Source of the DNA: an uncultured Bacillota bacterium
Lineage (GTDB): Bacteria; Bacillota; DTU084
DNA length: 64,000 nt
NCBI GenBank assembly: GCA_937888735.1
Contig: CALASN010000164.1
Location: forward strand, 26,643-90,642
Direction: 5' to 3'
A program made the translations under genes and the position numbers. Every line of letters starts with the position of its first letter. Position 1 is the stretch's first letter. Under the pieces are notes generated by a model. That model was given only the letters and a program-made list of their open reading frames with translations, searched no databases and was not told where the DNA came from. Positions 10,569-32,771 of this stretch are shown here, one piece after another.

Positions 10569-11933
10569 ATGAAAAAAGTTGTCTGGATAGCGTTGGCGGT
10601 GATCGCTGCAGCGGGGATCTATTTTGGCGCCAGAAAACAGGTGGCTGAAGAGGAACCCAGCAAAGCTGGCAAGAAGGTAGTGGTGGTAATAAATAACGGC
10701 CCCAAAGAGACTAACAAAGCGGAGGTCAAAAAACTGAAGGATACCATCGCTCGCTTCAATAAGGTTTATCCTGAGATTGAAATCCGCTGGACTGATCGCA
10801 GCTATTCCCCGGATAGCTTCGCCACCAGCATGGCCGGAGGCACGGCCGAGGACGTATCCAGCGTTTTTGCCACGGAAAGCTATATAGCCGATCGCGGTTA
10901 CGCTCTGGATCTGACGGAACTGATCAATAACTGGGAGTACAAAGAGCAACTGAATCCCAGGATGCTGCAGCCTTTTACCAAACAAGGCCGTTATTATGGC
11001 TTTCCCGAAACAGGCTATATTATGGCGCTGGCGTACAACAAAAGATTGTTTCGCGAAGCCGGGATTGAAAATCCGCCGCAGACTTGGGAGGAATTTGTTG
11101 CAGCAGCCAAAAAGCTCACCGACCGCAAAACCGGCTGCTCCGGCTTCGGAATCATGGGACGAAGCAACTTTGCGGGTTGGGGTTTGCTGAATTGGGTCTG
11201 GCAAGCAGGAGGCGATTTTGAAAAAGAGCGCAACGGCAAGTGGAAGGCGGTTTTCGCAGAACCGGAAGCGGTGCGCGCGGTGGACTTCGTGAGGTCTTTG
11301 CGCTGGGAGCACGATGTTCTGCAGAGAAACTTGCTGGTTGGCGTGGAAGAGTTGATGCAGAGCTTCGCCGCAGGCCAGCTGGGCATGATGCTCGTCACCA
11401 GCACGACCTATAATATTCCCCTAATGGTCAATCAATATAAAATGAAGCTTGAGGACGTCGGGCTTGCCATGCTGCCCGCCGGGCCAGCGGGCAGAGCAAA
11501 TCAGCTGGGCGGCAGCTTTGCCGTGATCAATCCCACCAGCCCGAAAGAAGTCCAGGAAGCGGCATTTAAATGGATCGCCTGGCGGGCGCTGCAAGGATAT
11601 GATCCCCGGCAGATTCAGAATCTGGCGGACTTGAATCGTAAACAGGGCTTGGTCACAGGCACTTCCTCTGTTCCCATCATGGTAGGCGAAATCGCGAAAA
11701 AAGCAGACGAGGTAATCGATAAAAATCGCGATGTGTTCGTGGTCTTCGATGATGCGGTGGAAGCTTCCAAGTATATTCACCTTGAGCCGCCGTTTTTCTG
11801 CCAGCAGCTGTACTCAGAGTACCTTGGCCCTGTGATTGAGGCTGTCTTAACTAATAAAAACGCCGCTCCCAAACAGAGCTTGGCTAAAGCGGCAGCTAAT
11901 TTTGAAAGCAGATTTTTGGCGCAAGTTAAATGA
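10569..11933 (+). CDS. Extracellular solute-binding protein (ABC transporter family-1 sugar-binding protein). It is membrane-anchored by an N-terminal TM helix and has no lipobox Cys.
   Basis: 454 aa. N-terminus MKKVVWIALAVIAAAGIYFG. Length and composition are typical of a sugar-binding protein. AGGAGG-like RBS (gaggtgagga). Confidence 0.75.
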   Translation: MKKVVWIALAVIAAAGIYFGARKQVAEEEPSKAGKKVVVVINNGPKETNKAEVKKLKDTIARFNKVYPEIEIRWTDRSYSPDSFATSMAGGTAEDVSSVFATESYIADRGYALDLTELINNWEYKEQLNPRMLQPFTKQGRYYGFPETGYIMALAYNKRLFREAGIENPPQTWEEFVAAAKKLTDRKTGCSGFGIMGRSNFAGWGLLNWVWQAGGDFEKERNGKWKAVFAEPEAVRAVDFVRSLRWEHDVLQRNLLVGVEELMQSFAAGQLGMMLVTSTTYNIPLMVNQYKMKLEDVGLAMLPAGPAGRANQLGGSFAVINPTSPKEVQEAAFKWIAWRALQGYDPRQIQNLADLNRKQGLVTGTSSVPIMVGEIAKKADEVIDKNRDVFVVFDDAVEASKYIHLEPPFFCQQLYSEYLGPVIEAVLTNKNAAPKQSLAKAAANFESRFLAQVK

Positions 11934-11991
11934 GATGCGTAGAGGCAGGTTGAGAGCAGCATAAAGATAAAAAGCAAGGAGAGAATCTTAG

Positions 11992-12969
11992 ATGAATAAG
12001 AACATTTTAGTTGGAGACGCGATTCCTAACATGCCGTGGGAAGACAGACCCAAGGATTCCCAGGAGATTATCTGGCGTTCCCGCAGGAACCCAATTATCC
12101 CCAGAGATCTTATTCTCTCGGCCAACAGCATTTTCAACAGCGCGGTTGTGCCTTTCCAAGGCCGGTTTGCCGGCGTCTTTCGCTGCGATGACAAAGCGCG
12201 GGACATGAACCTGCACAAAGGCTTCAGCGAAGACGGCGTCAAGTGGAGGCTGTCCGAAGAGGCCATCTCCTTCAACTGCGAAGCTCCGGAGATCAAATAT
12301 ACCCACGGCTATGATCCCAGGGCTGTTTTCATTGAAGACCGGTATTATATTACCTGGTGCAACGTTTACTGCGGCCAGCCCACCGTCGGCGTGGGCTATA
12401 CTTTCGACTTTGAAGAGTTCCATCAGCTGGAGAACGCCTTTTTGCCGTTTAACCGCAACGGGGTCTTGTTCCCCCGCAGGATCAACGGCGCCTACGCGAT
12501 GCTCAGCCGCCCCAGCGACAGCGGGCATACGCCTTTCGGAGATATTTTTTATAGCCAAAGCCCGGACATGATCCACTGGGGGCATCACAGATTGGTGATG
12601 CGTCCCACAGAAGGCTGGCAGAGCACCAAGATCGGGGCGGGCCCGATTCCAATCGAAACCGCCGAAGGTTGGCTTTTGCTCTACCACGGAGTGCTGACCT
12701 CCTGCAATGGTTTCGTCTACAGCTTTGGCGTAGCCCTTTTAGATTTGGAAGAACCTTGGCGGGTGCTGCACAGGTCCAAGCAATACCTGCTTTCACCGCA
12801 AGCGCTCTACGAGTGCGTGGGCGACGTGCCGAATGTTGTTTTTCCGTGCGCCGCGCTGTGCGACGCGGACAGCGGCAGGATCGCGATTTACTATGGCGCT
12901 GCGGACACGGTGACAGCGCTGGCTTTCACCACGGCTGATGCGCTTTTAGACTTTGCAAAGAGCAAATAG
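11992..12969 (+). CDS. GH130-family glycoside phosphorylase/glycosidase (DUF377 5-bladed beta-propeller), cytoplasmic.
   Basis: 325 aa with no signal peptide. The N-terminal pattern [37 protein letters not shown] matches the GH130 hallmark NPI...FN.AVV...G.F.GVFR. Confidence 0.65.
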
Positions 12970-15249: not shown

Positions 15250-15421
15250 TTTTCTCGCTCCTCAAATAGACTGCTTCCATAATAAACCTTTTCGCCGCTT
15301 TTTGTCAACCAGATTTAAGCGAAGGAAACAAGGGGAAGCAGCTTTAATTTTGCTTAAATGTGATTGACTATTAAATCATATCGTGCTATATTTAAAGCAA
15401 ATCGCTGGCAAAGGGAGGATG

Positions 15422-17829
15422 AATGTGAAAGAATTGGATCGGGTTGTGCTAGAGATGAGCTTGAAACCTTTCCGCAGAACTGAACCGGCTTGGCTGCGGA
15501 AGACTTGTCAGGAGGCATTCCGGCAGTGGGGACCGCTGCTTGCCAAAAGCAAAAGAGCCTCTGTGCTGCTGTGGGTATCCGATGGCAGCGAGCTGCTCAC
15601 CTGGCAGGGAGATTTGGCCGCCAGCTTCGAATGGGCAAAATATCTTGGCTTTTGCAATACCATTACCATGCCTACACCGGAAATGAATTCTCGCCGGAGC
15701 GAGTGGCGCGACCATATGCGCCGGCTCCTCCGGTCATGACCTATGAGATTCTCAAGACCATCATCGAGCTTTTGAAACAGACGGCCGAAGCGGAACTGGG
15801 CTTGGAGCTGACAGTTGGCGCCACTTTCGATCCTGGGCCTGAATTTGCTTATTCGCAGTTTAAATATAAAAACCACCCTGAGATCATAGTGGACAGATAC
15901 AACAGTTCCATCGGCGAGACCATAGCTGAGGTGAATCACGCCGCCAAACTGCGCGGCGATTCCGCGCGTTATGCCGCCTTCCCACAGGGAATCCAAGAGG
16001 GAACCGCCTTCGGCACTTTCTTAGGCAAACAGGCGCAAAGCTACTTGACTGCCCTGGGTTTTGACTATCTGTGGCTTTCCAATGGTTTTGGCTTCACCCC
16101 TTATCCGTGGACCATGCTGGGAGACAACTTTGACGGCAGTCAATTCGGCAAGGCTGATTTTGAGAAAGCAAGGCAAACGCTCCTGGCTTTCTGGGAAGAC
16201 TTCACTGCTGCCTGTCATTATCCATTGGAGGCGCGAGGAACTAATTTCACCACTGGGATCGATCTGGCAAAAGATTGCATCCCCTTGGCCGACTTATATA
16301 AATATCTCCCCTTGCCGCCGCCTAATTCCCCCTGGGGAGCTTTGAATTTCGACTTTGGGCTGGAGCTGGCGGGATTCATGTCCAGGATCGCCGAGACCCC
16401 AAAAGGAGATTTCATGTTTCGCTATTACATCAACGATCCTTGGTTTTGGCAAAATCCCTGGTTTGATCTGTACGAAGGCCAGCCTTTTGATCTCTATTGC
16501 CCTTTGGTCACGGCCGGCGTGGACGCTGCGGGCCAGGTGAGAAGCGCGAAGACAATCCAGTTTCTGGCCATAGATACGGCCCGGGGGAAGCTGCCGGAGA
16601 GATGTCCGCGGGAGGTGATTCCGCATCTTCTGCGAGCTGTGGAAGAAGCGCCGGACAACTTTGGGCCTGTGAGCTGGCTTTATCCCTTCGCGGAATATCA
16701 CCGGCTCCCAGGAGATTCTCAGCTGGCGTTTTTCGGAGACTTTTTCGTCCGCAGCGCCATCAACAGCGGCTTGCCTCTCAACACGGTGCTTTCTACTGAC
16801 ACTTTCCGCAAACTCCTGGCGGAGAAAAATGAGCGGCTGTTTGAGACCGTCCTGCTGGCGCCAGTGCCCTGGGACGGCGCTTATGAACGCGAGCTCTGTC
16901 AGTTCATCTCCTCTGGCGGCAAAGTCCTGCTCTACGGGCCGTTCAACGGGGCTGCGGAATTGCGCAGGCTGCTGAACATCTCCCTCAAAGAGCCCTTGGC
17001 AGGGGAAATGGAGCTGGAGCTTTCCCTTGAGACAGACACCTTCCGCGGTCGGGGACCTGACAAATTTAAGCATGATCCTGCAATTTCCGCAGGCGGCGTC
17101 CGCGAGCTTCTGACCGCAGCCGATGGATACACACATGTGGACGCTGTGGCGAGACAAGGAGCGGAGGAGCGGATTTACGCGCTCACGTGCAGCCGGCCGG
17201 ACTGGAGAGGCGGCCGAGTAGGCTGGGTGCGGGGCTCCCTGCCGTTTTCGACCAAACGGGAGAGCGGACAAGAGCTGAGAATGCCGAAGAATTATCCGCC
17301 GGCGTATTTTGACGCCTCTGTGCTGCCCAGATATCAGCTGAGCGCGTTTGGTTACAGATTGCGCCAGGTGCGGGAAGACGCTGCGACTCCCGCCAGCTTA
17401 CTTTTGGTTTCCAGACACAACAACAGCTTTGTTTTCTCCGGCTGTCAGACCAACCAGACCACAGAACTGCTTTTGGAATTTCCCGACGGCGCGCCTGTGA
17501 TCTCGGGCAGGGAGACGCCGGTTGCCGGCAGGCAGGCGGGTTATGTCTTCTCTCGGACCATCAGGGAAAACTGCCGCCTGTTTGTGGAGCAAAAGGAGCG
17601 GTCCGTGCTCGCCTGTCGGGAGCGGCGGCCTTTCCCGGCAGACAAAGTGCGACGTTTGCTGGTTACAAATTTGCAAGCAGCTACGGTCACGGTTTTTCCC
17701 CCCGGGGACAGAATGGCGGAATTTCTGGCAGAGGAAAATGGAATCCGGCTTGGAGAAGAGAGGCTCCGGCGCCGGAAAGAGAAAATCATCCTGTACGATA
17801 TCAACGGCACACTTGAGCTAGCCTGGTGA
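15422..17829 (+). pseudogene. Frameshifted gene for a ~800-aa cytoplasmic protein of unknown function (possible glycoside hydrolase or phosphorylase). The N-terminal ~85 codons are in frame 2 and the rest in frame 1 (ORFs 15383..15739 and 15490..17829), joined by a single-nt indel near 15670-15700.
   Basis: Frame 2 starts MNVKELDRVVLEMSLKPFRR with a GGGAGG RBS and reads protein-like until about 15690. Frame 1 reads protein-like from ...GNEFSPERVARPYAPAPPVMTYEILKTII onward. No X XXY YYZ slippery heptamer is present. Confidence 0.55.
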
Positions 17830-17841
17830 GGAGCGAAAAAA

Positions 17842-19284
17842 ATGTTAGAACGAATTGAGATTTCTAAAGGCAGAATCGGCTATTTTCACCTGGGCCACCA
17901 GCCATACTGGCAGCAATTTCCGGAACTGAAAGCGCAGCTCGAGCTGTACGCCTCTCAGTTTAAAGAGAAGCTCATGGCCTTCGGCCAAGCTGAAATCATC
18001 GACGGCGGGCTTGTGGATACAGCCCAAAGAGCCCGGGAGGTGGGAGATTATTTCCGGGCCCAGGGCGTTGATCTGCTTCTGTGTTACGTGACCACCTACG
18101 CTACCTCCGCCGTGCTGCTTCCTGTGGTGCAACGCTCTGGCGCCGATGTGGTGCTCCTGGGACTGCAGCCGAACTCCCGCATGGATTGTACGGTCTCCAC
18201 CACGTTCGATCAACTCTGCCACGATAACGTCACCAGCCTCCCGGAACTGTGCTGCGCGCTTCTGCGAGCCGGGATCAAACCTTTGGACGTCTTGGTGGGC
18301 GCGGCCCAGGGAGACGCCAGAGTGGAGCGGGAGCTATCCCAGTGGCTGGACGCGGCAACAGTGAAGAGAAACGTGACAGACGCCAGGCTCGGCCTTTTGG
18401 GTCACGTTTATGAGGGAATGCTTGATATGCACTCCGATCCCACCATGTTTCACGGCGCCTGGGGCGCGCACATTCAAATGCTGGAGATGTGCGATCTCGA
18501 GGAAGCGGTCTGTGGCGTCGCAGCCTCCGAGGTCGCAGCAAAGCTCGCTGAAATAAAAGAGGAGTTTGTGTTGGCCCAGCCCAGCCACGACCCAATCGCG
18601 GGGCTCATCTCGCCGGAGGATTTGGACTGGTCCGCGCGGGTAGCTTGCGCTTTAGAAAAATTAATCGGCGCCTACAAGCTGGATGGGATGGCCTATTATT
18701 ATAAAGGAAAGGGAGAGTATGAAAAGCTGATTTCCGGGATGATCATCGGCAGCTCGCTGCTCACAGGCAGGGGAATACCCATGGCCGGGGAACTGGATCT
18801 GAAGACATGCCTCGCCATGCTGATCATGGATCGGCTTGGGTGCGGCGGCTCTTTCTGCGAATTGCATCCTGTGGATTTCGACGACGATATAGTGCTGGTA
18901 GGGCACGACGGACCTGCCCATATCAGGATCAGCGACGCCAAACCTGTGATCCGAAAACTGAAACTCTTCCACGGTAAGCGAGGCTCGGGTCTCTCAGTGG
19001 AATTCAAAGTCCGCACCGGCCCTGTGACCCTTCTGGGACTCACCCAGACCGCCGGCGGCGACTTCAAATTTGTGGCTGCAAAAGGCGAATCGCTCAAAGG
19101 AGAAATTCCTCGCTCCGGCAATACCAACACCCGGGTGCGTTTTGCCACGGGCGTGGCAGAGTTTATCGAAAAATGGTCGCTGGCAGGTCCAACCCACCAT
19201 TTCGCGCTGGGAGCGGGGGATAAGCTCTCCGCTTTGCAAAAGGCGGCGCAAGTTTTGAAAACTGAGTTGGTTGTTGTCTCCTAG
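17842..19284 (+). CDS. L-arabinose isomerase / L-fucose isomerase family protein (AraA-like sugar isomerase).
   Basis: 480 aa. The C-terminal WSLAGPTHHFALGAG resembles AraA WILAGGAHHTCFS. GHDGPAHIRI resembles the AraA metal-binding His region. Confidence 0.6.
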   Translation: MLERIEISKGRIGYFHLGHQPYWQQFPELKAQLELYASQFKEKLMAFGQAEIIDGGLVDTAQRAREVGDYFRAQGVDLLLCYVTTYATSAVLLPVVQRSGADVVLLGLQPNSRMDCTVSTTFDQLCHDNVTSLPELCCALLRAGIKPLDVLVGAAQGDARVERELSQWLDAATVKRNVTDARLGLLGHVYEGMLDMHSDPTMFHGAWGAHIQMLEMCDLEEAVCGVAASEVAAKLAEIKEEFVLAQPSHDPIAGLISPEDLDWSARVACALEKLIGAYKLDGMAYYYKGKGEYEKLISGMIIGSSLLTGRGIPMAGELDLKTCLAMLIMDRLGCGGSFCELHPVDFDDDIVLVGHDGPAHIRISDAKPVIRKLKLFHGKRGSGLSVEFKVRTGPVTLLGLTQTAGGDFKFVAAKGESLKGEIPRSGNTNTRVRFATGVAEFIEKWSLAGPTHHFALGAGDKLSALQKAAQVLKTELVVVS

Positions 19285-19356
19285 CAACCTCCCAAGCCTA
19301 AGCCGGTGGCAAGCTGGCCGCTTTTATGCTAAGATAAGCGGAGAGGTGATTTTGCT

Positions 19357-21822
19357 TTGCGGATAACTTTTTGCGGCGGCGCCGGTGAGGTAGGCGCCAG
19401 CTGCTATTTGGTGGAGGCGGAAGGAAAGCGGATCCTTCTGGACTGCGGCGTCAGAATGGGCAATGCCAAAGACCCCTTGCCGGACTTCAGACTGATCCAA
19501 GAGCATGGCGGGGTAGACGCCGTCGTGCTCAGTCACGCGCATTTGGACCACAGCGGCGCTCTGCCCATTATCAGTCGGGAATATCCCCAGGCTCCAATCT
19601 TCATGACCCACGCCACTAAGGATTTGGTGCGGGCGCTGCTCTACGACAGCCTCAAGATCATGGCTCAGGAAGAGGAGATTCCCATCTATGCGGAAAAACA
19701 CGTAGAGCTGATGCTCAAACGCATAGTCTGTTATTCTCCGCAGACGTACTTCACGGTGCCGGACAGCGGGATTCAGCTGTCTTTTTATCAGGCGGGCCAT
19801 ATTTTGGGCGCAGCTGCCGTGGAGCTTAAAAGCGCCGAGGGAACGCTTTTTTTCTCCGGCGATATTTCTTTTGCCAGGCAACATACTGTGGGAGGCGCCG
19901 CCATAGGGAAACTGAGGCCGGATGTGGCCGTCTTTGAATCCACCTACGGCGACAAGCTTCACGCTAACAGACAAGGAGAAGAGTTGCGCCTGGTGGAAAC
20001 AGTGAAAGAGGCGATAGCCTCCGGAGGAAAAGTGCTGATCCCGGCCTTCGCCCTGGGACGGGCTCAGGAAGTGATCATGATCCTTCAGCGAGCGATGAAT
20101 AAGGGAATTTTCCCCGAGTGTCAGGTATGGGTTGACGGCATGGTGCGGGAGATTTGCAGAGTTTACCGGCTCAACCCCAACTACCTGCCGGAGCGGTTGG
20201 CCAAGCGGGTGTGGAGAGAGGGAGAGATTTTTTTCAGCGAGCGGATCCAGCCTGTGACCAACCCGGAAATGCGGCGGGAGATCGCAGAGGGGAAGGACCC
20301 TTGCGTGATCATCTCCTCCAGCGGCATGCTCAGCGGCGGGCCCAGCCAGTATTACGCCCAGAAGTTGGCGCCGGGGGAAGACAACCTCATCGCCATTACC
20401 GGCTATCAAGATGAGGAGGCGCCCGGCAGAGGACTTTTAGACTTAATGAACTCCCCGGGCGAGAGGCGGCTGTCCATCGGCCAGCTCAGCTTGCCCGTGG
20501 CCTCGCGAATCGAAAAATATAATCTTTCGGCCCATGCGGACAGGGGAGAACTGATAAATCTCGCTCACGCCCTCTCACCGAGAAGGATTTTCTTAGTGCA
20601 TGGTGAAAGAGAGATCACCGAAACCTTTGGCAGGCTCCTGCAATCCGAAATTTGGGGGCAGGTGGAACTGCCGGCGAACGGTCAGAGCGTAGAGCTTGAT
20701 GTGCGCAATCCCAGAAAACAGCGGCAACGGCTCCAGATTCCCTGCTTGCTGCGAGACGAGCTTCCGGAGGAAGACGATTTGCAACTTCTCTGGGAGCATC
20801 TTTTGGCGCACGATTATCTTTTTCCCAGCAGTCCGGAGCAGCTCTTGGGGATCTGGCAGGAGCGAGCCGCCGGCGAAGAGCAGGTTAAGGCCATGTTCTC
20901 ATTGCTTTCCGGCTCTCCCTACTTTCAGCAAGACCCCAGGCGTCCGTTTTTGTTTAGGCCTCTTTCTCCCGCGGAGCTCGAGCCTCAAGAAGCGGGGCCC
21001 ATGGAGGTGAACAGGATGCTGGCTCTGGCGGACGAGTATTTCCCCGCAGACAGCGGCCTTTATAAGAAAGGCGCCCGCCTGGAGGAAGGAAAAGTTCTCC
21101 TCACCTTTAAATTTCCCCGTCTGGCCAGGGAGAAATATCAAAGGCAGCTGGCAGAGTTCCAAGAGGCCACGGGCTGGGAAGTCCAGCTCAATGAGAATTG
21201 CAACCTGCAGGCCGCGCAAGAAGTTTTGCGAAGCCTTTTGCCCCAGTCCGCGCAGCTTTTGAAATTTTCCTACTATCCGGAAGAGGAGGCTTTCCGCGCC
21301 ACCTTGACGGAGGAGCTTCCGGCAGAGCCGGCAGCCGAGTTTTACCGGCAAACAGGCCACAGGCTGGCTGGTCAGGTCCGGGCGCCGCAAAAGCTGGAAC
21401 TGACCGGCGCCGGCCCCACCGAGCCGTTGGAGCAGAACCAGGCTTTCGCGCTGCTCGATCAAGCCTTCCTGGGCCAACCGGATCAGCCCCACAAGAAGAG
21501 CCTGAAGCATGATCAAAACGGACGTTATATCGAACTGGCCTTCCTCACGCCCCAGGTGGGAGAAAAGTACAGGGAACTTTTGGACCGGCTGGAATGCAGG
21601 ACTCTCTGGCAGCTGAAGATTAGTCCCGCCGTGAATCAAGCGGCGCTTCTGAGCCTGGCCAGAGAGACGGTGGAACAGGCGGGCGGCGTGTTGAAGAAAA
21701 ACCCTTCCTACATTGCGGCGCAAAAGAAGATTAGAATCTCGCTGGAGGCGCCTTTGCCCCGAGCGGAGCAAACCGCCGCGGAATTTTGGCGTCTGACCGG
21801 AATCACCCTTGAACTTAATTGA
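19357..21822 (+). CDS. MBL-fold metallo-hydrolase of the beta-CASP (RNA-metabolising) family with a ~390-aa uncharacterised C-terminal extension.
   Basis: TTG start with GGAGAGGTGA RBS. MBL motifs HAHLDHSGALP. beta-CASP motifs AHADRGEL and LVHGE near aa 400-430. Residues 430-821 have no recognisable motif. Confidence 0.75.
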   Translation: MRITFCGGAGEVGASCYLVEAEGKRILLDCGVRMGNAKDPLPDFRLIQEHGGVDAVVLSHAHLDHSGALPIISREYPQAPIFMTHATKDLVRALLYDSLKIMAQEEEIPIYAEKHVELMLKRIVCYSPQTYFTVPDSGIQLSFYQAGHILGAAAVELKSAEGTLFFSGDISFARQHTVGGAAIGKLRPDVAVFESTYGDKLHANRQGEELRLVETVKEAIASGGKVLIPAFALGRAQEVIMILQRAMNKGIFPECQVWVDGMVREICRVYRLNPNYLPERLAKRVWREGEIFFSERIQPVTNPEMRREIAEGKDPCVIISSSGMLSGGPSQYYAQKLAPGEDNLIAITGYQDEEAPGRGLLDLMNSPGERRLSIGQLSLPVASRIEKYNLSAHADRGELINLAHALSPRRIFLVHGEREITETFGRLLQSEIWGQVELPANGQSVELDVRNPRKQRQRLQIPCLLRDELPEEDDLQLLWEHLLAHDYLFPSSPEQLLGIWQERAAGEEQVKAMFSLLSGSPYFQQDPRRPFLFRPLSPAELEPQEAGPMEVNRMLALADEYFPADSGLYKKGARLEEGKVLLTFKFPRLAREKYQRQLAEFQEATGWEVQLNENCNLQAAQEVLRSLLPQSAQLLKFSYYPEEEAFRATLTEELPAEPAAEFYRQTGHRLAGQVRAPQKLELTGAGPTEPLEQNQAFALLDQAFLGQPDQPHKKSLKHDQNGRYIELAFLTPQVGEKYRELLDRLECRTLWQLKISPAVNQAALLSLARETVEQAGGVLKKNPSYIAAQKKIRISLEAPLPRAEQTAAEFWRLTGITLELN

Positions 21823-21841: not shown

Positions 21842-23902
21842 ATGAAAAGATATCCGCCAATCAATCCGAAATTCGGACATCTGATTCACGGCGCGGATTA
21901 CAACCCGGATCAGTGGCTTGCTTTCCCTGAGATTTTGCAGCAGGATTTGCGGCTGATGAAGCTGGCCCATATGAACAGCATGTCCGTGGGGATCTTCGCT
22001 TGGGCGGCGCTGGAGCCCGAGGAGGGGCGCTTTGAGTTTGGTTGGTTAGACAAGATTATGGACGACCTGGCGGATAACGGCGTCAGCGTTGTCCTGGCCA
22101 CCCCCTCCGGTGCGCGGCCCGCCTGGCTGTCCGCCAAATACCCCGAGGTGCTGCGGGTACAGCCCAACGGGCAGCGCAATCTGCACGGCGGCAGGCACAA
22201 TCACTGCTATACATCCCCCGTTTACAGGGAAAAAGTTAGGCTGATCAATACCAAACTGGCAGAGCGCTATGGGGAGCATCCGGCTTTGCTTATTTGGCAC
22301 GTTTCCAATGAATACAGCGGCGAATGCCACTGCGAGCTTTGTCAGGCGGCATTCAGGGAGTGGCTCAAGGCCAAATATCAAGGCTCTTTGGACAAACTAA
22401 ACCGCGCGTGGTGGACGGCGTTTTGGAGCCATACATATACTGATTGGTCCCAGATCCATTCTCCGGTTCCCAACGGTGAGTTTCTGGTCCATGGGCAGAA
22501 TTTGGATTGGAAGAGGTTTGTCACCTCTCAGACCGTGGATTTCTTCAAGAGCGAGATCGCTCCCTTGAAAGAGCTCGCGCCCGAGATTCCGGTCACCACT
22601 AACTTGATGGGAACCTATCCGGGACTGGATTATTGGCAGCTGGCCCGGGAAATGGATGTGGCCTCTTGGGATAGTTATCCGTCCTGGCATGGCGAAGAGG
22701 AGGATTGGCGCGTTGGCTGCCGTACGGCTTTTCTGCACGATCTCAACCGCTCTCTGAAAGGCGGCAAGCCTTTCCTTTTGATGGAAAGCACCCCCAGCGT
22801 GACCAACGGGCAGGCGGTGGCTAAGCTGAAAAGGCCCGGGATGCACGTTTTAGCTTCCCTCCAGGCCGTGGCTCACGGCGCGGACTCGGTACAGTATTTT
22901 CAGTGGCGCAAGAGCAGGGGCTCATGCGAAAAATTCCACGGCGCGGTTGTGGATCACTGCGGCCATGAAAACACTAGGGTATTTCGTGATGTGACGGCCG
23001 TAGGCCGGACGCTGGAGAAATTGGATGATGTTGTGGGCGCCTCCGTGTCAAGCCAGGTGGCGATCATCTACGACTGGGAGAATCGTTGGGCCATAGAAGA
23101 CGCCAAGGGCCCCCGCGTGGAGAAAAAAGCTTATCAGCCCACTTGCGAAACGCATTATCAGGCTCTTTGGCGCCGGGGCGTATCTGTGGATGTCATCAAT
23201 ATGGACGCGGATTTTTCCGGCTACAAATTGTTAATCGCGCCTATGCTTTACATGGTGCGGCCCGGAGTGGCCCGGCGTCTGGAGGAATTTGTCTCCTCCG
23301 GCGGCACGCTGGTTGCCACGTACTGGAGCGGGATCGTGGATGAGAACGACCTCTGTTTTCTGGGAGGCTTTCCCGGTCCCCTGCGTAAGGTCTTGGGCGT
23401 CTGGAGCGAGGAGATCGACGCTCTCTACGACGAAGACGTCAATCATGTGGTGATGAAGCAATCCGGGAAAGAATATGCTGCTGTGGAGCTGTGCGATCTC
23501 ATTGCCGCGGAGACGGCCGAAGTTTTGGCAGTCTACAAAGAAGATTTCTATGCGGGGCGGCCTGCTCTGACCCGCAATAAATTTGGCGCGGGCCGGGCTT
23601 ATTATCTCGCCTTTCGCAGCCGGGAAGACTTCCTCCTGGATTTTTACGGCCGGCTGATTTCGGATCTGAACATAGAGCAGCCTTTGCCGGGAGAGCTTCC
23701 CCAAGGGATCTCTGTCCACAAGCGCACGGACGGAGAGCACGATTTCATCTTTATTATGAATTTTAACCCTTCCCAACAGACAGTTGCGCTGGGGGACGCT
23801 GATTTTGAAGAGCTGATTTCCGGCGGCAAAGAGCAAGGGACAGTCCGGCTGCCGGGATATGGCGCGAAAATCCTGAAACGCAGGATAAAGCCCGGGCTTT
23901 AG
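21842..23902 (+). CDS. GH42-family beta-galactosidase.
   Basis: MKRYPPINPKFGHLIHGADYNPDQWLAFPE...WHVSNEYSGECHC is the GH42 signature, including the Cys/His zinc site. AAAAAGGAG RBS. Start chosen at ATG 21842 rather than track start 21809, which overlaps the upstream gene. Confidence 0.85.
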   Translation: MKRYPPINPKFGHLIHGADYNPDQWLAFPEILQQDLRLMKLAHMNSMSVGIFAWAALEPEEGRFEFGWLDKIMDDLADNGVSVVLATPSGARPAWLSAKYPEVLRVQPNGQRNLHGGRHNHCYTSPVYREKVRLINTKLAERYGEHPALLIWHVSNEYSGECHCELCQAAFREWLKAKYQGSLDKLNRAWWTAFWSHTYTDWSQIHSPVPNGEFLVHGQNLDWKRFVTSQTVDFFKSEIAPLKELAPEIPVTTNLMGTYPGLDYWQLAREMDVASWDSYPSWHGEEEDWRVGCRTAFLHDLNRSLKGGKPFLLMESTPSVTNGQAVAKLKRPGMHVLASLQAVAHGADSVQYFQWRKSRGSCEKFHGAVVDHCGHENTRVFRDVTAVGRTLEKLDDVVGASVSSQVAIIYDWENRWAIEDAKGPRVEKKAYQPTCETHYQALWRRGVSVDVINMDADFSGYKLLIAPMLYMVRPGVARRLEEFVSSGGTLVATYWSGIVDENDLCFLGGFPGPLRKVLGVWSEEIDALYDEDVNHVVMKQSGKEYAAVELCDLIAAETAEVLAVYKEDFYAGRPALTRNKFGAGRAYYLAFRSREDFLLDFYGRLISDLNIEQPLPGELPQGISVHKRTDGEHDFIFIMNFNPSQQTVALGDADFEELISGGKEQGTVRLPGYGAKILKRRIKPGL

Positions 23903-26096: not shown

Positions 26097-26876
26097 CTAA
26101 TTGTTGGCAGTCTTGTAGCGGGAAGGGCTTTTCCCCATGATCTTTTTGAAGGCGCGGCTGAAATAAGCCGGGTCTTCATAGCCGCAGACTTCGGCAACCT
26201 CTGTGACAGTATACATGCCGCTGAGCAACATGTCGCAGGCCTTGCCGATCCGAAGCCGCGAGCGGTACGACGAGGCCGATTCTTTATACACCCTTTTGAA
26301 TAAGCGGCGAAAATATGTTTCGGACATACCGCACAGCTGCGGCAGCGCGGATTCGGGAAACGGTTCGCAGCAATGGGCCTCAAGATACTCCACAGCCGGG
26401 TTCAGTTTTTTTCGGTAGCTGTCATGCTCGCAGTCCGTCTCCCGCAGCAGCGCGCCGATCAGCTCGTACAACAAACTCATGCTCAGCACCCGATAATGCG
26501 CCGAGCGTTTTCCCCAGACGTTGACCAATCTCATAAAAATCTGACAAATTTTCTGCCCATTGACTGGCGTCAGACAAAGGGGGAGCGCGGAAAGAGCGGC
26601 CGGGAATGTCAGCTGAAAATTCACCGTCATGTGGACGAAAGGGGAGTCGTCGTAGCAGCTGGTCACATAAGAAGTATCGGGCGAGAGATACAGGACCTCG
26701 CCGGCTTTAGTGGTAAAAGAATGTGTGCCGTTCATCTGATAATGTGCGCGTCCCTCAAGCACATATACGATCCCGTGCCTCTGACGGGAATTTTTATATT
26801 CTTCGCTGATCCAGCCCGGCGGAGAAACAAACTTGTGGCACAAGATGATTTCGCTCACGACGATTTCCTTCACCAC
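26097..26876 (-). CDS. AraC-family transcriptional regulator (N-terminal cupin sensor plus C-terminal double HTH).
   Basis: C-terminal YFRRLFKRVYKESASSYRSRLRIGKACDMLL...YFSRAFKKIMGKSPSRYK is a canonical AraC HTH. Confidence 0.85.
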   Translation of the reverse strand: MVKEIVVSEIILCHKFVSPPGWISEEYKNSRQRHGIVYVLEGRAHYQMNGTHSFTTKAGEVLYLSPDTSYVTSCYDDSPFVHMTVNFQLTFPAALSALPLCLTPVNGQKICQIFMRLVNVWGKRSAHYRVLSMSLLYELIGALLRETDCEHDSYRKKLNPAVEYLEAHCCEPFPESALPQLCGMSETYFRRLFKRVYKESASSYRSRLRIGKACDMLLSGMYTVTEVAEVCGYEDPAYFSRAFKKIMGKSPSRYKTANN

Positions 26877-26960
26877 GGCTAGAGCCTCCTTTGCGGCAAT
26901 AAAGATGTGTGCCGTTTAATCCAAGTGTACTGCTTGTTATATGGAAAAGCAAGTGCCGAT

Positions 26961-27013
26961 TTGTGATAATAGATTCACAGTCTAGGCGATCTGTCGCCGG
27001 GCCTGTGAATCTA
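26961..27013. promoter_or_regulatory. Composite operator-like element in the araC/27041 divergent intergenic region: TGTGA-N8-TCACA overlapping a perfect 11-bp inverted repeat (TAGATTCACAG ... CTGTGAATCTA, 22-nt spacer).
   Basis: Read directly from the sequence. It lies 28 nt upstream of ATG 27041. Confidence 0.3.
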
Positions 27014-27040
27014 GCCAGCGGCTATGCGAAGGAGGAAATT

Positions 27041-30000
27041 ATGAGCGTTTCCTGTAAAAAAGAGAGAAGGCCCATCCTTACCTATGTGCCGGGCCAGCCC
27101 AATAAAATGCCGTATTTTATCGAGGGAAAGGCCTATCAGGGAGCATGCGGCCGGGTATATCCCATCCCGGTCCGCGATCAGCTGAGCGATGCGCCTGTGG
27201 AAGTGGAGTATGACGTGATCACGCTTGCCAACGAGCACATCGAGGTGAATTTGCTGCCGGAGCTTGGCGGGAAAGTGTATGGCGCCAAGAGCAAACACAA
27301 CGGCTATGAGTTCGTCTACCAAAACCCGGTGGTTAAGCCAGCGCTGGTGGGACTGGCCGGACCTTGGGTTTCCGGCGGCATTGAATTCAACTGGGCGCAG
27401 CATCACAGGCCCACCACCTTTGCTCCCGTGGAAGCCACGGTTCAAAACAATCCTGATGGTTCCGTAACTTGTTGGCTGGGAGAGGCGGAACCGTTCCATC
27501 GGCTGCGGGGCGCGGTGGGGATTACCCTTTACCCGGGGAAATCCTATCTGGAAGCGAAGGCGCTCCTTTATAACAGAACAGACCTGCCGCTGCCGTTTAT
27601 GTGGTGGAACAATCTGGCCGTGCGGGTCAATCCCCAATATAAAGCCGTCTTTCCGCCGGACGTGGAATATGTCAGCGACCATGACCGGAGGGCGGTTATT
27701 TCTTTTCCCGTCATGCGAGGGATCTTCGAGACGGCGCGGCCTTACGACTATGGCGACGGTGTGGACGGCACGTGGTATCCCAACATCAAAATTCCCACTT
27801 CGGTGATGGTCATGCGCGGACAATCAGAGATGAATTTTCTGGGCGGTTATGATTTTGCAAAAAACGCCGGCACTGTCACCGTGGCCGACCATTACGTGTC
27901 TGTGGGGAAAAAAATGTGGACCTGGGGCGACTGTGAATTTGGGAGGGCCTGGTGCAAAAACCTGACTGATAACGACGACCGTTATATCGAGCTGATGACG
28001 GGAGTCTATACCGATAATCAGCCGGATTTCACCTATCTGATGCCGGGAGAAACCAAGGAGTTTACGCAGGTTTGGTATCCGATCCAGGAGATCGGGGAAG
28101 TGGCAAACGCCACAATCGACGGGGCGCTTTCCTGCAGACAGGAGGGCAGGAAGCTGTTCCTTGGCGCCATTGCCACAGCGCTTTTCCCCAACGCCCGCTT
28201 GTCGGTCGCCCTTGACGGCAAGACCATTTTCGAAAAAACAGCGTCTGTGGCGCCGGACCGGAGTTGCCTTGCCGAGACAGTGCTGCCTGACGGAGCGGAG
28301 ATCAACAGCGTGCGCGTGGCTCTGGAGAGCGCGGAGGGAAAAGAATTGGTCTCCTATGTCCCCGTGCGGCGCGGAGTCAAGAAAAAGCCCCAAGCGCGCA
28401 GCATTCCGCCCAGGCCGGAGGAAGTTAAGAGCGTAGAAGAGCTTTACCTGCACGGCGCGCATCTGGAGCAATACAAACATCACACTTACAAACCTGAGGC
28501 TTATTATCTGGAAGCTTTGCGCCGCGACCCTTCAGATTACCGCTCAAACTTGGCTTTGGGCCGGCTCTGCACCGAAAAGGCGCAATTCGAAACAGCCCGT
28601 GTCTATTTGAACAGGGCCGTTGCCAAGCTCACCTGCCGCAACGATAACCCCGCGGATACGGAAGCCGTTTATCTGCTGGGACGTCTGGAAAAGCTCTGCG
28701 GAAACCCTGACGCTGCGTACGAACTCTTTCAGCGGGCTGCCTGGCAATATCCCTGGCGCAGCCAGGCGTATCTTGAAATTGCCAGGATCGACTGCGCCCG
28801 GGGAGAAAAGCAGCGGGCAATTCATTATCTGCGGCTTTCCCTGGAAACCAACGCCAAGCTCTTTGCTGCCCGCACCCTGCTGGGCTATTTGCTGCAGGAT
28901 AAAAAGCTGCTGGGGCGCGTCCTTACAGACGCGCCCCAGGATACGTTTGCGCGGTTTGCCCTCTATCTGTTGGGCGGGGAAGAGGTTGCCGCTTTCATTT
29001 TGCACCGTCCGGAAGACGTTCTGGATGTGGCATTGGAGTTTAAGCAGGCGGGCCTGTATCAGGAGGCGGTCCGCGTCTTGGATCTGTGCCAAAGGCCAAA
29101 TCTGCTGCTGAAATTTCATAAGGCCGCCCTCTTGGGGCAGCCGCCGGAAGACGCCACGCTGGATTACTGCTTTCCCAACCGTCTGGAAGATCTTGCGGTT
29201 TTAGCCGGACGTAACGACTGGCGAGCGGCATATCTGCTGGGCTGCCTATATTACGACAGGCTGAATTATGCCTCGGCAGCCGACGCCTGGGAGACGTCCG
29301 TGCGTCTGCACGAAAACAATCCGTATGCGCTGCGTAATCTTGCCTTTGCCTATTACGACCACCTGGGCCGCAAGCAAGAAGCATTGGGGTTGTTGCAGGA
29401 AGCCCTGGCGCGGGATCCCCAAAACGCCCGCCTGCTGTACGAACTGCTGCAGTTGAAGAAAAACCTGGGATCCACGGCTGAAGAAAGGCTGGCGCTGCTG
29501 GAGTCCCACGCCGCGCTCGTTTGCCAGAGGGATGACTGTTACTTGAGCTGGGCCATGCTCTATACCCAAACCGGACAGTACGAAAAGGCGGAGCAGCTTT
29601 TAAAAACCCGCAGCTTCCATATTTACGAGGGCGGAGAAGGTATGCTGACCCGGCATCATAGTTGGCTCTACACCCTTATGGGAGCCGAAGCCATGCGGGA
29701 AGGAAACTATGAAAAAGCAGCGAAATGTTTCCCAAATGCGCTCGCCTTTCCGGCTAACTACGGTGAAGGGAAACATTACAGCGCCCAGGAAAGCAACGTC
29801 TGGTATTATGCGGGGCTGCTGAACGAACAGCGGCATCTTCCCCGGCAGGCGAAAGAATGCTATGAGCAAGCGGTGCAACAACCCCCGCGGCTTACGGAAA
29901 TCTCCTATTTTACCGCCCGGGCGGGGGAGAAACTGGGACAGCCGGAGCAGGCAGCGGAGCTGTTTCGTCAAATGTGCGCCCAGGCCGGGGAACGTCTCAC

Positions 30001-30223
30001 AACAGCTGATCTTCCCGGTTACTTCGGCGTGGGCAGCCCGGTGCCGCAGCCTTTTGAGCTGGATCTGGAAAAGGTAAACCGCGTCAACGCTTATCTGCTC
30101 TTGGCGTTGGGGCAAAAAGGCTTGGGCAATCTTAAAGCAGCGGAAGCCTGCGTTCAGGAATTAGTCCGGTTGGATCCTTATAACGCGACGCTTGAGATCT
30201 ATAGGAAGTTGGACGTACTATAA
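27041..30223 (+). CDS. Large (~1060-aa) cytoplasmic protein with an N-terminal beta-rich domain (DUF5107-like) followed by multiple TPR repeats.
   Basis: GAAGGAGG RBS 4 nt before ATG 27041. The C-terminal half is rich in A/L/Y TPR-like repeats (AYYLEALRRDP, AYLLGCLYYD, ALRNLAFAYY). Confidence 0.65.
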   Translation: MSVSCKKERRPILTYVPGQPNKMPYFIEGKAYQGACGRVYPIPVRDQLSDAPVEVEYDVITLANEHIEVNLLPELGGKVYGAKSKHNGYEFVYQNPVVKPALVGLAGPWVSGGIEFNWAQHHRPTTFAPVEATVQNNPDGSVTCWLGEAEPFHRLRGAVGITLYPGKSYLEAKALLYNRTDLPLPFMWWNNLAVRVNPQYKAVFPPDVEYVSDHDRRAVISFPVMRGIFETARPYDYGDGVDGTWYPNIKIPTSVMVMRGQSEMNFLGGYDFAKNAGTVTVADHYVSVGKKMWTWGDCEFGRAWCKNLTDNDDRYIELMTGVYTDNQPDFTYLMPGETKEFTQVWYPIQEIGEVANATIDGALSCRQEGRKLFLGAIATALFPNARLSVALDGKTIFEKTASVAPDRSCLAETVLPDGAEINSVRVALESAEGKELVSYVPVRRGVKKKPQARSIPPRPEEVKSVEELYLHGAHLEQYKHHTYKPEAYYLEALRRDPSDYRSNLALGRLCTEKAQFETARVYLNRAVAKLTCRNDNPADTEAVYLLGRLEKLCGNPDAAYELFQRAAWQYPWRSQAYLEIARIDCARGEKQRAIHYLRLSLETNAKLFAARTLLGYLLQDKKLLGRVLTDAPQDTFARFALYLLGGEEVAAFILHRPEDVLDVALEFKQAGLYQEAVRVLDLCQRPNLLLKFHKAALLGQPPEDATLDYCFPNRLEDLAVLAGRNDWRAAYLLGCLYYDRLNYASAADAWETSVRLHENNPYALRNLAFAYYDHLGRKQEALGLLQEALARDPQNARLLYELLQLKKNLGSTAEERLALLESHAALVCQRDDCYLSWAMLYTQTGQYEKAEQLLKTRSFHIYEGGEGMLTRHHSWLYTLMGAEAMREGNYEKAAKCFPNALAFPANYGEGKHYSAQESNVWYYAGLLNEQRHLPRQAKECYEQAVQQPPRLTEISYFTARAGEKLGQPEQAAELFRQMCAQAGERLTTADLPGYFGVGSPVPQPFELDLEKVNRVNAYLLLALGQKGLGNLKAAEACVQELVRLDPYNATLEIYRKLDVL

Positions 30224-30333
30224 CAAAGAGAGCCGTCAGCTAAAAGTTGAGCCGCGCCTTTTTCCCGGTCCGGTATTGAGGCTGCCTTTGAATGTTCCGC
30301 GGTGATTTTGCGCTCAGAAAGGAGTTAGTGAAG

Positions 30334-31449
30334 ATGGGAACGATTTGGACAAAAGAAAGGGCCTGGCAATGGTATGATAGCCGTCCCTGGCTGCGGGGAT
30401 GCAATTTTATGGGGAGCGACTGTGCCAACAGGATCGATCAATGGCAGGAGTTGGGTTTTGAGGAACGGCTGAGAACAGCCGATGCCGAGCTGGCGCTGGC
30501 TCAAAAAACGGGCTTCAATTCCATTCGGATTATTTTGGAGTTCGTCGTCTGGCAGCAGCAGCACGACGGTTTTCTGCAACGGCTGGACAGATATCTGGAA
30601 ACCGCGTGGAAACACGGCATCTCCTGTATGGTGGTGTTGGGGAACGACTGTATGCCGCCCAAAGACGAGTTTTACAAGCCCCCTCAGGTGGGAGTTCAGA
30701 CATATGATTGGGGCTACCATGGCGGGCGGAAGCATTCCCAGCATGCTCATTTTTCCGGCATGGGCTATCATCTGCTGGACGAGCCGGAACTTGCGCAGCT
30801 CCATTATGAATGGGTGCGGGAAATCATCAGTACCTTTCGGAACGACCGGCGCATCGTCATGTGGGATCTTTATAATGAGGCTGGCAATTCTAAACGCGAG
30901 GCGGCGACGCTGCCGCATTTGAAGAAATTTTTTGAAATCGCCAGGGAAGTGGATCCCATTCAGCCGCTGACCTGCTGTACGTTTCGTTGCCCCGGAGATC
31001 CCCGGCGAGAGATTCCGGCCCTCGAGCGCTTTGCGCTGGAAAACTCTGATCTCATTTCTTACCACAGCTATGCGGATTATCAGGAAAACGTCCGCGTTAT
31101 CAAACGCCTAAAGCGATTCGGCAGACCCATCGTCTGCACCGAGTGGCTGGGACGGTGCATACATAACACTGTGCAGGAGATGTTCCCGCTGTTTTATTTG
31201 GAAAAGATCGGCTGCTATAACTGGGGCTTGGTGGCGGGCAAATACCAGACTTACGAACCCTGGGAAGGTCTCTGGCAGGAGTATGAAAAGCAGCCGCAGG
31301 CGGATGTGGATTTCACCAAGTGGTTTCACGACCTGTACCGGCCGAACCTGCGACCGTACGATCCCCGGGAAATTGAACTGATCAAGCGCTTCTGCGGATA
31401 CGCGGATTACGATTTTTCATTGGAAACGGCTGGGAACAGCGACGGCTAA
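30334..31449 (+). CDS. Cytoplasmic clan GH-A TIM-barrel glycoside hydrolase (cellulase/GH5-like family).
   Basis: AAAGGAG RBS. No signal peptide. The WDLYNEAGNS region looks like an acid/base motif and the VCTEWLG region like a nucleophile motif. Confidence 0.6.
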   Translation: MGTIWTKERAWQWYDSRPWLRGCNFMGSDCANRIDQWQELGFEERLRTADAELALAQKTGFNSIRIILEFVVWQQQHDGFLQRLDRYLETAWKHGISCMVVLGNDCMPPKDEFYKPPQVGVQTYDWGYHGGRKHSQHAHFSGMGYHLLDEPELAQLHYEWVREIISTFRNDRRIVMWDLYNEAGNSKREAATLPHLKKFFEIAREVDPIQPLTCCTFRCPGDPRREIPALERFALENSDLISYHSYADYQENVRVIKRLKRFGRPIVCTEWLGRCIHNTVQEMFPLFYLEKIGCYNWGLVAGKYQTYEPWEGLWQEYEKQPQADVDFTKWFHDLYRPNLRPYDPREIELIKRFCGYADYDFSLETAGNSDG

Positions 31450-31532
31450 CTGTGAGCGTACCGACGCGGAGCTTGGTCATAGACGAGCATACAGACATCG
31501 CCAAAGAAAAAGTGATGGAAGGGGAGATGAAA

Positions 31533-32771
31533 ATGGCTGGTGAAATTATATATAAATCAGGCGACAGACAAAGGCTCAGTTATGACGTAGTGGTTGCCGG
31601 AGGAGGCCCCGCGGGAATCGCGGCCGCTTTGGAAAGCGCCCGTTCCGGCGCCAGAACCGCTTTAATCGAACGGTATGGGATTTTGGGGGGAAACCTTACT
31701 TCAGGCTTTGTCGGCCCGATTATGGGTTTGGTATCAGAGGGGACGATCGCGGATGAAATCGAACGGGCTCTGGACTTGAGGCTGGTGAAAGTCCAGAATA
31801 TGGAGCGCGCAAAATATGTTTTTGTCAGGATGTTGACGGAAGCCGGAGTGGATATTTATTATCAGACGCTGCTCGCGGGCGTCGCCGTCCGAGGCGAAAG
31901 AATTGATGCTGCCGTGGCCGTAGGAAAATGCGGGATCTTTGATTTCCATGCGGAAATGTATATCGACGCCACTGGCGATGGCGACATGGCTTACTACGCA
32001 GGCTGTCCCTATCAAATGGGGCGGGAGGGTGATAACCTCGTGCAGCCTGTTTCCCTGATGTTTACGATCTGCGGCGTAGACCCCAGCCAGACTCAGGACT
32101 TGACCTGCTGGGATGATACGGTATTGACCAGCGGAAAGAAATATCTGCAGCTGTGTAAGGACGCCTGTGCTGGCGGAGAACTACCGCCGACGGTAAATAA
32201 GGTGCGTCTTTATCTGACGCAGCTTCCGGGGGAGCGGATGGTGAACGCGACGCAGGCCAACGGGATCGATCCGTTTTCCGCGGCGGATTTGCAGAGAGCC
32301 GAGCTGGATCTGCGGACGCAAATTGAAATGGTTGTAGCATTTCTTCGCGCTCACGTTCCGGGGTTTGAAAACATATGGGTAAAGGCCGGCGCGAGCACTC
32401 TGGGCGTCCGGGAATCAAGACGCATAACTGGAGATTACATACTTCAGGATCTGGATGTGGTCACCGGTCGGAAATTCGAGGATGTGGCCGTCCACAATGT
32501 AAATTTCCCGATTGACATCCATAATCCGTCTGGCGCCGGCCAGGCGGAAACGGAGGGACTACGTCCGCATATGGCGCAGCCGTATGATATTCCGTTCTCC
32601 TGTATGCGGCCGCTGGGGATCGATAATCTTTGCACTGCCGGAAGATGCATCTCCGGTACGCATCGCGCCCACGCTTCCTACCGGGTCATGCGTGTTTGTA
32701 TGGCGATGGGACAGGCGGCCGGAGCCGTCGCCGCTGTGGCGGCCGCTCGAAAAGTCGGCGCCGTGAAGTGA
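31533..32771 (+). CDS. FAD-dependent oxidoreductase (glycan-locus-associated FAD-binding protein family).
   Basis: Rossmann motif VVVAGGGPAGIAAALESARSGARTALIERYGILGGN. Start chosen at ATG 31533 behind a GGAAGGGGAG RBS. Confidence 0.7.
   Translation: MAGEIIYKSGDRQRLSYDVVVAGGGPAGIAAALESARSGARTALIERYGILGGNLTSGFVGPIMGLVSEGTIADEIERALDLRLVKVQNMERAKYVFVRMLTEAGVDIYYQTLLAGVAVRGERIDAAVAVGKCGIFDFHAEMYIDATGDGDMAYYAGCPYQMGREGDNLVQPVSLMFTICGVDPSQTQDLTCWDDTVLTSGKKYLQLCKDACAGGELPPTVNKVRLYLTQLPGERMVNATQANGIDPFSAADLQRAELDLRTQIEMVVAFLRAHVPGFENIWVKAGASTLGVRESRRITGDYILQDLDVVTGRKFEDVAVHNVNFPIDIHNPSGAGQAETEGLRPHMAQPYDIPFSCMRPLGIDNLCTAGRCISGTHRAHASYRVMRVCMAMGQAAGAVAAVAAARKVGAVK

Follow-up and report, generated by a model that had tools for sequence, protein, structure and literature searches.

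Among the described beta-CASP nucleases, the archaeal termination factor FttA (aCPSF1; structures 3af5, 2ycb, 2xr1 and 9bct) carries at its N terminus two KH domains for the reading of U-rich RNA, KH1 and KH2 (residues 6-144), and the C-terminal domains of CPSF73 and IntS11 are heterodimerization domains for CPSF100 and IntS9, respectively (PMC11616081). The short bacterial CPSF-like RNase TTHA0252 of Thermus thermophilus (2dkf/3iek; 431 amino acids [aa]) consists of the catalytic core only, Cas14 (NF045584; 8yhd) belongs to type VII CRISPR-Cas, and RNase J (J1/J2) is a beta-CASP RNase of Firmicutes that has a C-terminal domain. Here, we analyzed a 64,000-nucleotide (nt) stretch of DNA from an uncultured Bacillota bacterium of the lineage DTU084 (contig CALASN010000164.1, positions 26,643 to 90,642 of the forward strand; this whole stretch is called the window below), in which a gene at positions 19357-21822 on the + strand encodes an 821-aa beta-CASP protein. 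Compared with TTHA0252, this protein is longer by 380 residues, and its interest lies in the structural reading of that tail rather than in the position of the gene within a sugar-utilization region. We consider it probable that the gene encodes a widespread long-form CPSF73-like nuclease of RNA processing or decay with a C-terminal KH-like platform, at a location that is incidental.

The catalytic core

The core occupies residues 1-440 (19357-20676 +, as are all features of the protein given below) and combines metallo-beta-lactamase (MBL), beta-CASP and RMMBL domains with all catalytic motifs present. Pfam Lactamase_B covers residues 10-222, the beta-CASP insert domain residues 236-360 (20062-20436; PF10996, E = 8e-24), and the RMMBL or "RNA specificity" segment residues 379-431 (20491-20649; PF07521, E = 2.6e-13), the last of these holding motifs B and C. 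In an alignment of 47 family sequences, MBL motifs 1 to 4 (D29; H60-A-H62-L-D64-H65; H148; D169) and beta-CASP motifs A (E194), B (H393) and C (H415) were all present and invariant. These domain matches and the full set of motifs bear out the initial annotation of the gene product as an 821-aa beta-CASP/MBL nuclease-like protein, and the prediction of an intact RNA-type two-zinc nuclease core is well supported. A non-nuclease phosphodiesterase role, which had been listed as an alternative, is disfavored.

The core had been assigned to an RNase J/CPSF lineage, of which the CPSF part stood and the RNase J part did not. The best NCBIfam model for the protein was aCPSF1 (TIGR03675) at 349.9 bits, against 58.7 bits for the RNase J model TIGR00649 (cutoff, 400) and 37.2 bits for NF047419 (cutoff, 820); both RNase J scores lay under their cutoffs and came from residues 3-138 only, a weak match over the first ∼140 residues, and the tail of the window protein is unlike the C-terminal domain of RNase J. 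Sequence matches in the PDB were to aCPSF1/FttA, IntS11, CPSF73, Cas14 and TTHA0252 (E = 1e-45 to 1e-66), all of them stopping near residue 450. When cores were compared, RNase J scored 28-32 and the DNA nucleases Apollo, SNM1A and Artemis 22-23. To judge by its sequence, the core is of the CPSF73/TTHA0252/aCPSF1 type rather than of the RNase J type. The protein is nevertheless no aCPSF1/FttA ortholog: its score fell below the equivalog cutoff of 580.2 bits, and the match began only at model position 175, past the KH region, the protein starting directly at the MBL core without an N-terminal KH1-KH2 pair.

A histidine at motif C together with RMMBL reportedly marks the RNA-acting branch of the group, whose DNA-acting members are said to have valine there, a distinction that Callebaut et al. 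are reported to have drawn in 2002. The window protein has His at motif C and an RMMBL segment, and its closest relatives in both sequence and structure are RNA enzymes, placing it with the CPSF73-like branch and outside the SNM1A/Apollo/Artemis branch with its non-His motif C. By analogy with the characterized relatives, the protein would be expected to cut RNA, endonucleolytically and/or as a 5'-to-3' exonuclease. A Cas14-like or Apyc1-like defense system was also considered and rejected: there were no PADLOC matches, the type VII model NF045584 scored 278.9 bits (far below its cutoff of 800), the C-terminal domain of Cas14 found no counterpart in the tail, and the Apyc1 Pfam match (E = 0.029) was far below threshold. 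No cas-type genes were seen among the neighbors by Pfam, where the genes are sugar genes; CRISPR arrays were not searched for.

The gene runs from a TTG start codon at 19357 to a stop codon at 21820-21822 (open reading frame list and translation), and a ribosome-binding site, GGAGAGGTGA (19340-19349), was read from the sequence 7 nt before the start. The N terminus, LRITFCGG, aligns with the family consensus MKxxFCGG found in all homologs, so the TTG at 19357 is the right start. The GC content of the gene (0.56-0.58) is the same as that of its neighbors. A mobile or plasmid origin was rejected on this ground and because plasmid matches reach the core only: plasmid-borne relatives are short, and none of 301 records covers ≥80% of the query.

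The C-terminal tail and the long-form family

Residues 441-821 matched no Pfam family, either in the window protein or in 46 homologs, and no NCBIfam model or PDB sequence, profile search included, in agreement with the initial annotation, which had described the C-terminal ∼390 aa as uncharacterized. A structure prediction was a check that it had proposed. An AlphaFold2 (AF2) model of residues 441-821, built from a 47-sequence alignment, reached a mean predicted local distance difference test (pLDDT) score of 91.3, and the predicted template modeling (pTM) score rose from 0.54 for the tail alone to 0.68 with the core included. The tail is predicted, with high confidence, to fold as a winged-helix-like domain followed by two tandem duplicated modules of two lobes each. 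A linker (residues 441-460; 20677-20736) with a conserved NPRKQ motif, in which R453 and Q455 are invariant, has low pLDDT in the C-terminal-only model and leads into the winged-helix-like domain (residues ∼461-540; 20737-20976), modeled as three helices and a beta-hairpin. Module A (residues ∼545-676; 20989-21384) carries the motifs MEVN, LYKKGAR, FxFP and TGW and is supported by the AF2 model, invariant residues, hhalign and KH-type fold matches; module B (residues ∼691-821; 21427-21819), supported by the AF2 model, hhalign and the alignment, carries MEQN, YKKSxK, IELSF, SPxxGExY (with G735 invariant) and TGW.

The two modules share the same order of secondary-structure elements in the AF2 model, alpha-beta-beta-alpha-alpha-beta in lobe 1 and alpha-beta-beta-alpha-beta in lobe 2, and lobe 1 of either module has the order, and passes the topology test, of a type II KH domain. 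By profile-profile comparison they are duplicates of each other (hhalign probability of 99.6%, E = 1.2e-24, 127 columns), with corresponding lobes matching at E = 1e-15 and 3e-14, whereas any kinship between the two lobes of a single module is very distant at best (E of about 1e-3). Common to both are ME[VQ]N at the first helix, a basic strand (LYKKGAR or YKKSxK), FxFP or SFxSP, and TGW. A Foldseek search with the tail as query, and hence without the beta-CASP domain, returned FttA (9bct; E = 2e-5) and aCPSF1 (2ycb, 3af5 and 2xr1) as top matches, and by both methods the top fold matches were twin-KH RNA binders, namely, aCPSF1/FttA and NusA. The 128 aligned residues agree with the length of KH1-KH2 in FttA. 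The C-terminal domains of CPSF73 and IntS11 were not among the fold matches.

The predicted tail of the window protein thus joins a winged helix to KH-like modules in a duplicated array and in its fold is most like the RNA-reading KH pair of FttA, but it differs from that pair in several respects. The modules are C-terminal, where the KH pair of FttA/aCPSF1 is N-terminal; they are larger, each consisting of two ∼65-aa lobes and the whole being duplicated; they are preceded by a winged-helix-like domain; and they have no detectable sequence likeness to it and no GXXG loop. On the model, the tail is best named KH-like, not KH, and the predicted architecture, in which a CPSF-like core precedes a winged helix and duplicated KH-like modules, appears to vary a known design without being categorically new.

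The ∼130-aa module varies in copy number among proteins, with at least four copies in one beta-CASP protein. A 2208-aa TPR protein (P0121) has five stretches matched by the tail module and no beta-CASP Pfam match, showing that the module can occur outside a nuclease context.

With the full-length protein as query, more than 120 homologs of 817-857 aa were recovered at 44-69% identity and 95-100% coverage, from Caldicoprobacter, Thermoanaerobacterium, Thermoanaerobacter, Pseudobacteroides, Mahellales, Clostridium, Halanaerobiales and Acididesulfobacillus; in the databases they are named "MBL fold metallo-hydrolase" or "Cft2 family RNA processing exonuclease." When only residues 441-821 were used in an exhaustive HMMER search, 419 clusters at 50% identity were recovered. 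In nearly all of these, the match lay at about positions 440-840 of a protein of ∼830 aa, almost always after a beta-CASP core, and the longer outliers (986-1407 aa) have the same core. An apparent stand-alone tail protein proved to be a fragment, its cluster including a 1299-aa beta-CASP protein (P0286). In a scan of one genome per species, the tail was encoded in at least 411 genomes. Among the matches listed, ∼74 of 80 genomes were Clostridia, and those outside Clostridia were single metagenome-assembled genomes of Cyanobacteriota/Sericytochromatia, Victivallales, Blastocatellia, Spirochaetaceae and Deltaproteobacteria. Core and tail occurred together in all 89 nuclease loci that were compared.

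A word-indexed homolog search with the tail only had returned nothing, although the window protein is present in public databases (NCBI and ENA, on a contig of 92,335 bp). As the window protein is clustered under a 255-aa fragment that serves as its representative, this null result is an indexing artifact and does not make the tail an orphan; representation by fragments is a reason for caution when "orphan" calls are made from this word-indexed search. The fusion of a nuclease to an uncharacterized domain, which had been called unusual, is instead the conserved form of a family. The clostridial long form is coherent and widely distributed, with a 380-residue tail for which Pfam has no model, and the gene is classed here as a member of this widespread, Clostridia-centered family of predicted CPSF73-like beta-CASP nucleases. 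No paper describing the long bacterial form or its tail was found in the literature. The window gene thus belongs, as an ordinary member, to a family that has been catalogued but not studied.

Genomic placement and explanations of function

The nuclease is a stand-alone gene without conserved neighbors. When seven relatives were viewed singly, seven unrelated neighborhoods were seen; in the relative with the closest homolog (69% identity), the flanking genes are those of a threonine-dehydratase-like protein and a BcrAD/BadFG ATPase. The proteins encoded by 11 neighboring genes of the window were searched (tblastn) against the 89 nuclease loci within ±10 kb, and the GH42 gene that follows the nuclease in the window was found in none of them, each other neighbor occurring in 0 or 1 of 89. 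Clustering of all open reading frames within 5 kb of the gene (87 loci) revealed no recurrent partner: no neighbor was more frequent than a generic ABC transporter, present in 18 of 87 loci, and RecQ was seen in 4 of 87. In the reverse direction, four metagenomic loci with a relative of the isomerase-like gene upstream of the nuclease carried neither nuclease nor GH42 in their flanks. Conserved co-occurrence with the genes of the locus, as expected for a member of a polysaccharide-utilization operon, was therefore not found among relatives.

One metagenomic locus (L090; 82% identical), the nearest syntenic relative of the sugar locus, retains the synteny of GH130, LacI, the gene of a 779-aa protein and the isomerase-like gene, and has no nuclease within 2.9 kb. 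It is no clean comparison because the synteny ends right after the isomerase-like gene at a DDE_Tnp_1 transposase (10643-12100 − of that locus), which takes the place of the nuclease and GH42 of the window; this region is thus a rearrangement point. Since the long form is common and unrelated to the locus (core and tail in 89 of 89 loci, GH42 in 0 of 89, and 0 of 4 in the reverse comparison), its location is coincidental, the outcome that the initial annotation had named as refuting its proposal; the fusion is kept in relatives, and the neighborhood differs in each relative examined. Placement of the gene in a LacI-controlled sugar operon is a lineage-specific accident with no functional link. 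The nuclease does not represent a new part of a CAZyme locus, and nothing about its function can be read from its neighbors.

In the Caldicoprobacter loci (such as L010 and L003; 4 of 87), a RecQ-family helicase gene and a gene for an uncharacterized 138-aa protein lie directly upstream of the nuclease on the same strand. This adjacency is the only hint of a link to DNA metabolism that the neighborhoods offer.

Under the explanation that we favor, the protein would be a general RNA-processing or decay nuclease, acting as an endonuclease and/or a 5'-to-3' exonuclease. Its winged-helix and KH-like tail may bind single-stranded nucleic acid, or dock the enzyme on a partner or an RNA-protein particle, and could in this way select or position substrates, functionally analogous to KH1-KH2 of aCPSF1/FttA though at the opposite terminus and lacking a GXXG loop. 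We offer RNA-guided substrate selection by the tail as a hypothesis for which tractable hosts exist, for example Thermoanaerobacterium and Clostridium ljungdahlii.

A number of points weigh against it. The KH assignment comes from the fold alone: no Pfam KH model matched any of the 47 members at E values up to 1, and a tail-only profile found no match among PDB sequences, its best E value being 0.18 (to uL13). The canonical GXXG loop, expected between the two consecutive helices, is absent from both modules, in which 38 of 47 sequences lack any GxxG; at the equivalent sites, module A has PxxAxxY, with Ala, and module B has Px[IV]GE[RK]Y, with G735 as its single invariant Gly. The alpha-beta-beta-alpha-beta lobes also match non-RNA folds, namely, the CzrB C-terminal domain, ring-building motifs of type III secretion systems and eS7. 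As the output of the fold search gives no target residue ranges, the aCPSF1 matches of the tail were assigned to KH1-KH2 by exclusion and aligned length. The 19-nt spacing to GH42 implies co-expression with sugar genes, so that a local and recently acquired regulatory side-effect is conceivable. Finally, bacterial CPSF homologs are found "mainly in Clostridia and Proteobacteria" according to a review that gives their physiological role as unknown (PMC8501993).

The same structural evidence can be read in two other ways. The C-terminal modules might be scaffolds for protein interaction or oligomerization, as in CPSF73/CPSF100 and IntS11/IntS9, leaving the enzyme an RNase that a partner such as the ribosome, RNA polymerase or a helicase recruits. 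Such a role would fit the absence of both the GXXG loop and any KH signal at the sequence level, the dimerization domains at the C termini of eukaryotic homologs (PMC11616081), and the gain in pTM when the core is included. We nevertheless think it rather unlikely, as the best fold matches by both methods are twin-KH RNA binders and not the C-terminal domains of CPSF73, IntS11 or Cas14, the conserved basic strand motifs LYKKGAR and YKKSxK would suit contacts with a nucleic acid backbone, and no conserved neighbor gene suggests an obligate partner. Alternatively, the protein could be a bacterial FttA-like factor of termination or 3'-end formation, the tail engaging nascent RNA while the nuclease cleaves it or chases RNA polymerase. 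The type of catalytic core and the twin KH-like platform are those of FttA, whose KH1 and KH2 read U-rich RNA (PMC11616081), and the family is conserved and stands alone as a general factor might, all of which makes a role in termination attractive by analogy. We regard it as improbable all the same: the domains come in a permuted order and GXXG is missing, conserved linkage to nusG, nusA or the genes of RNA polymerase was not found, Bacteria already have Rho and intrinsic termination, and the distribution is patchy, with no member found in those model organisms for which the literature was searched. In its fullest form, the long-form family would be the bacterial counterpart of FttA/aCPSF1, applying a circularly rearranged, GXXG-less KH-like platform to nascent or 3'-end RNA in Clostridia, whether for factor-dependent termination or for maturation of 3' ends; we see little likelihood of this, although, were it true, Bacteria too would have the "torpedo" nuclease mechanism.

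The remaining explanations look to other substrates. Winged-helix and KH folds are able to bind single-stranded DNA, and with such a tail the enzyme could be a DNA-repair nuclease acting on DNA ends or cross-links in the manner of SNM1, Artemis or Apollo; DNA repair had been listed as a candidate role by the initial annotation. The RecQ gene that directly precedes the nuclease in the Caldicoprobacter group (4 of 87 loci), a Y-family polymerase gene 7 kb upstream in Thermoanaerobacterium and a weak match to the NCBIfam ligase-associated DNA-damage exonuclease (62 bits; cutoff, 325) speak for it. Against these stand the invariant His at motif C (H415), reportedly a mark of the RNA branch, the presence of the RMMBL "RNA specificity" domain and the restriction of the RecQ adjacency to one small clade, and we judge repair a poor prospect. 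A nuclease dedicated to the sugar locus, whether for turnover of the operon mRNA or for a sugar-phosphate diester, would account for the shared strand, the gaps of only 72 and 19 nt to the flanking sugar genes without a convincing terminator (z = 0.32), and the sugar-rich surroundings of the 69% homolog, which has GH10, PfkB and KDPG aldolase genes within 8 kb. Yet the immediate neighbors differ even in that homolog, the half of the window around the nuclease is so dense in sugar genes that chance adjacency is likely, and the family occurs in many non-saccharolytic acetogens (for example, Clostridium ljungdahlii, C. ragsdalei and C. drakei). With GH42 within 10 kb of the gene in 0 of 89 loci, no recurrent partner, and the nuclease absent from all 4 loci that carry the isomerase-like gene, a role for the sugar locus, which the initial annotation had put forward, is highly improbable.

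The surrounding window

The nuclease lies in a sugar-utilization region that comprises genes for a solute-binding protein, GH130, a major facilitator superfamily transporter, LacI, the 779-aa protein, an arabinose-isomerase-like protein, the nuclease, GH42 and an esterase. The GH42 beta-galactosidase gene (21842-23902 +; Pfam E = 1.8e-155) has an AAGGAG ribosome-binding site and starts with ATG at 21842, 19 nt past the nuclease stop at 21822, confirming the tight packing noted in the initial annotation. Gaps between the genes of the 779-aa protein, the isomerase-like protein, the nuclease and GH42 are 12, 72 and 19 nt. A promoter-like site, TTGACT-17-TATATT with a TG element (15364-15392 +; consensus scan only), is divergent from the LacI gene and is the likely start of a unit of these four genes. 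A terminator-like hairpin at 19302-19318, between the isomerase-like gene and the nuclease, was rejected: the intergenic region 19280-19360 is not significantly structured (z = 0.32). Because the hairpin folds no better than shuffled sequence, the nuclease gene is probably co-transcribed with the sugar genes, GH42 included, in this genome. An Rfam scan of the whole window found no RNA family.

The 779-aa protein (15490-17829 +), encoded under the divergent LacI gene, has no Pfam, NCBIfam or PDB sequence match, and it is kept beside the isomerase-like gene in two metagenomic relatives, at 74% identity in L090 and at 43% in L091, where the gene order is swapped. It is a candidate undescribed sugar-active enzyme. 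The 480-aa product of the next gene (17842-19284 +) shows weak likeness to the C-terminal domain of L-arabinose isomerase (51 bits; cutoff, 700) and to sulfoquinovose isomerase (43 bits; cutoff, 622), and on these matches it appears to be a divergent sugar isomerase.

Further upstream, two large proteins rich in F5/8-type-C and Ig-like domains, one of them with FlgD-Ig/CHU_C-like domains at its C terminus, are encoded on either side of a 1049-aa open reading frame (4101-7250 +) without Pfam or NCBIfam match. Downstream, an AraC-family regulator gene (26097-26876 −) is divergent from a gene set (26909-32771 +) that encodes a DUF5107-TPR protein (1104 aa), a GH2-like protein and an FAD-oxidoreductase; this set forms a second, separately regulated sugar locus, and GC content is lower (0.46) in the spacer at 25-26 kb. 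Ordinary chromosome makes up the other half of the window, where genes for TrpRS, ScpA/B, shikimate enzymes and aconitase are found, and this half includes a 711-aa fusion of an IspH (LytB) domain to four S1 RNA-binding domains (52392-54527 +).

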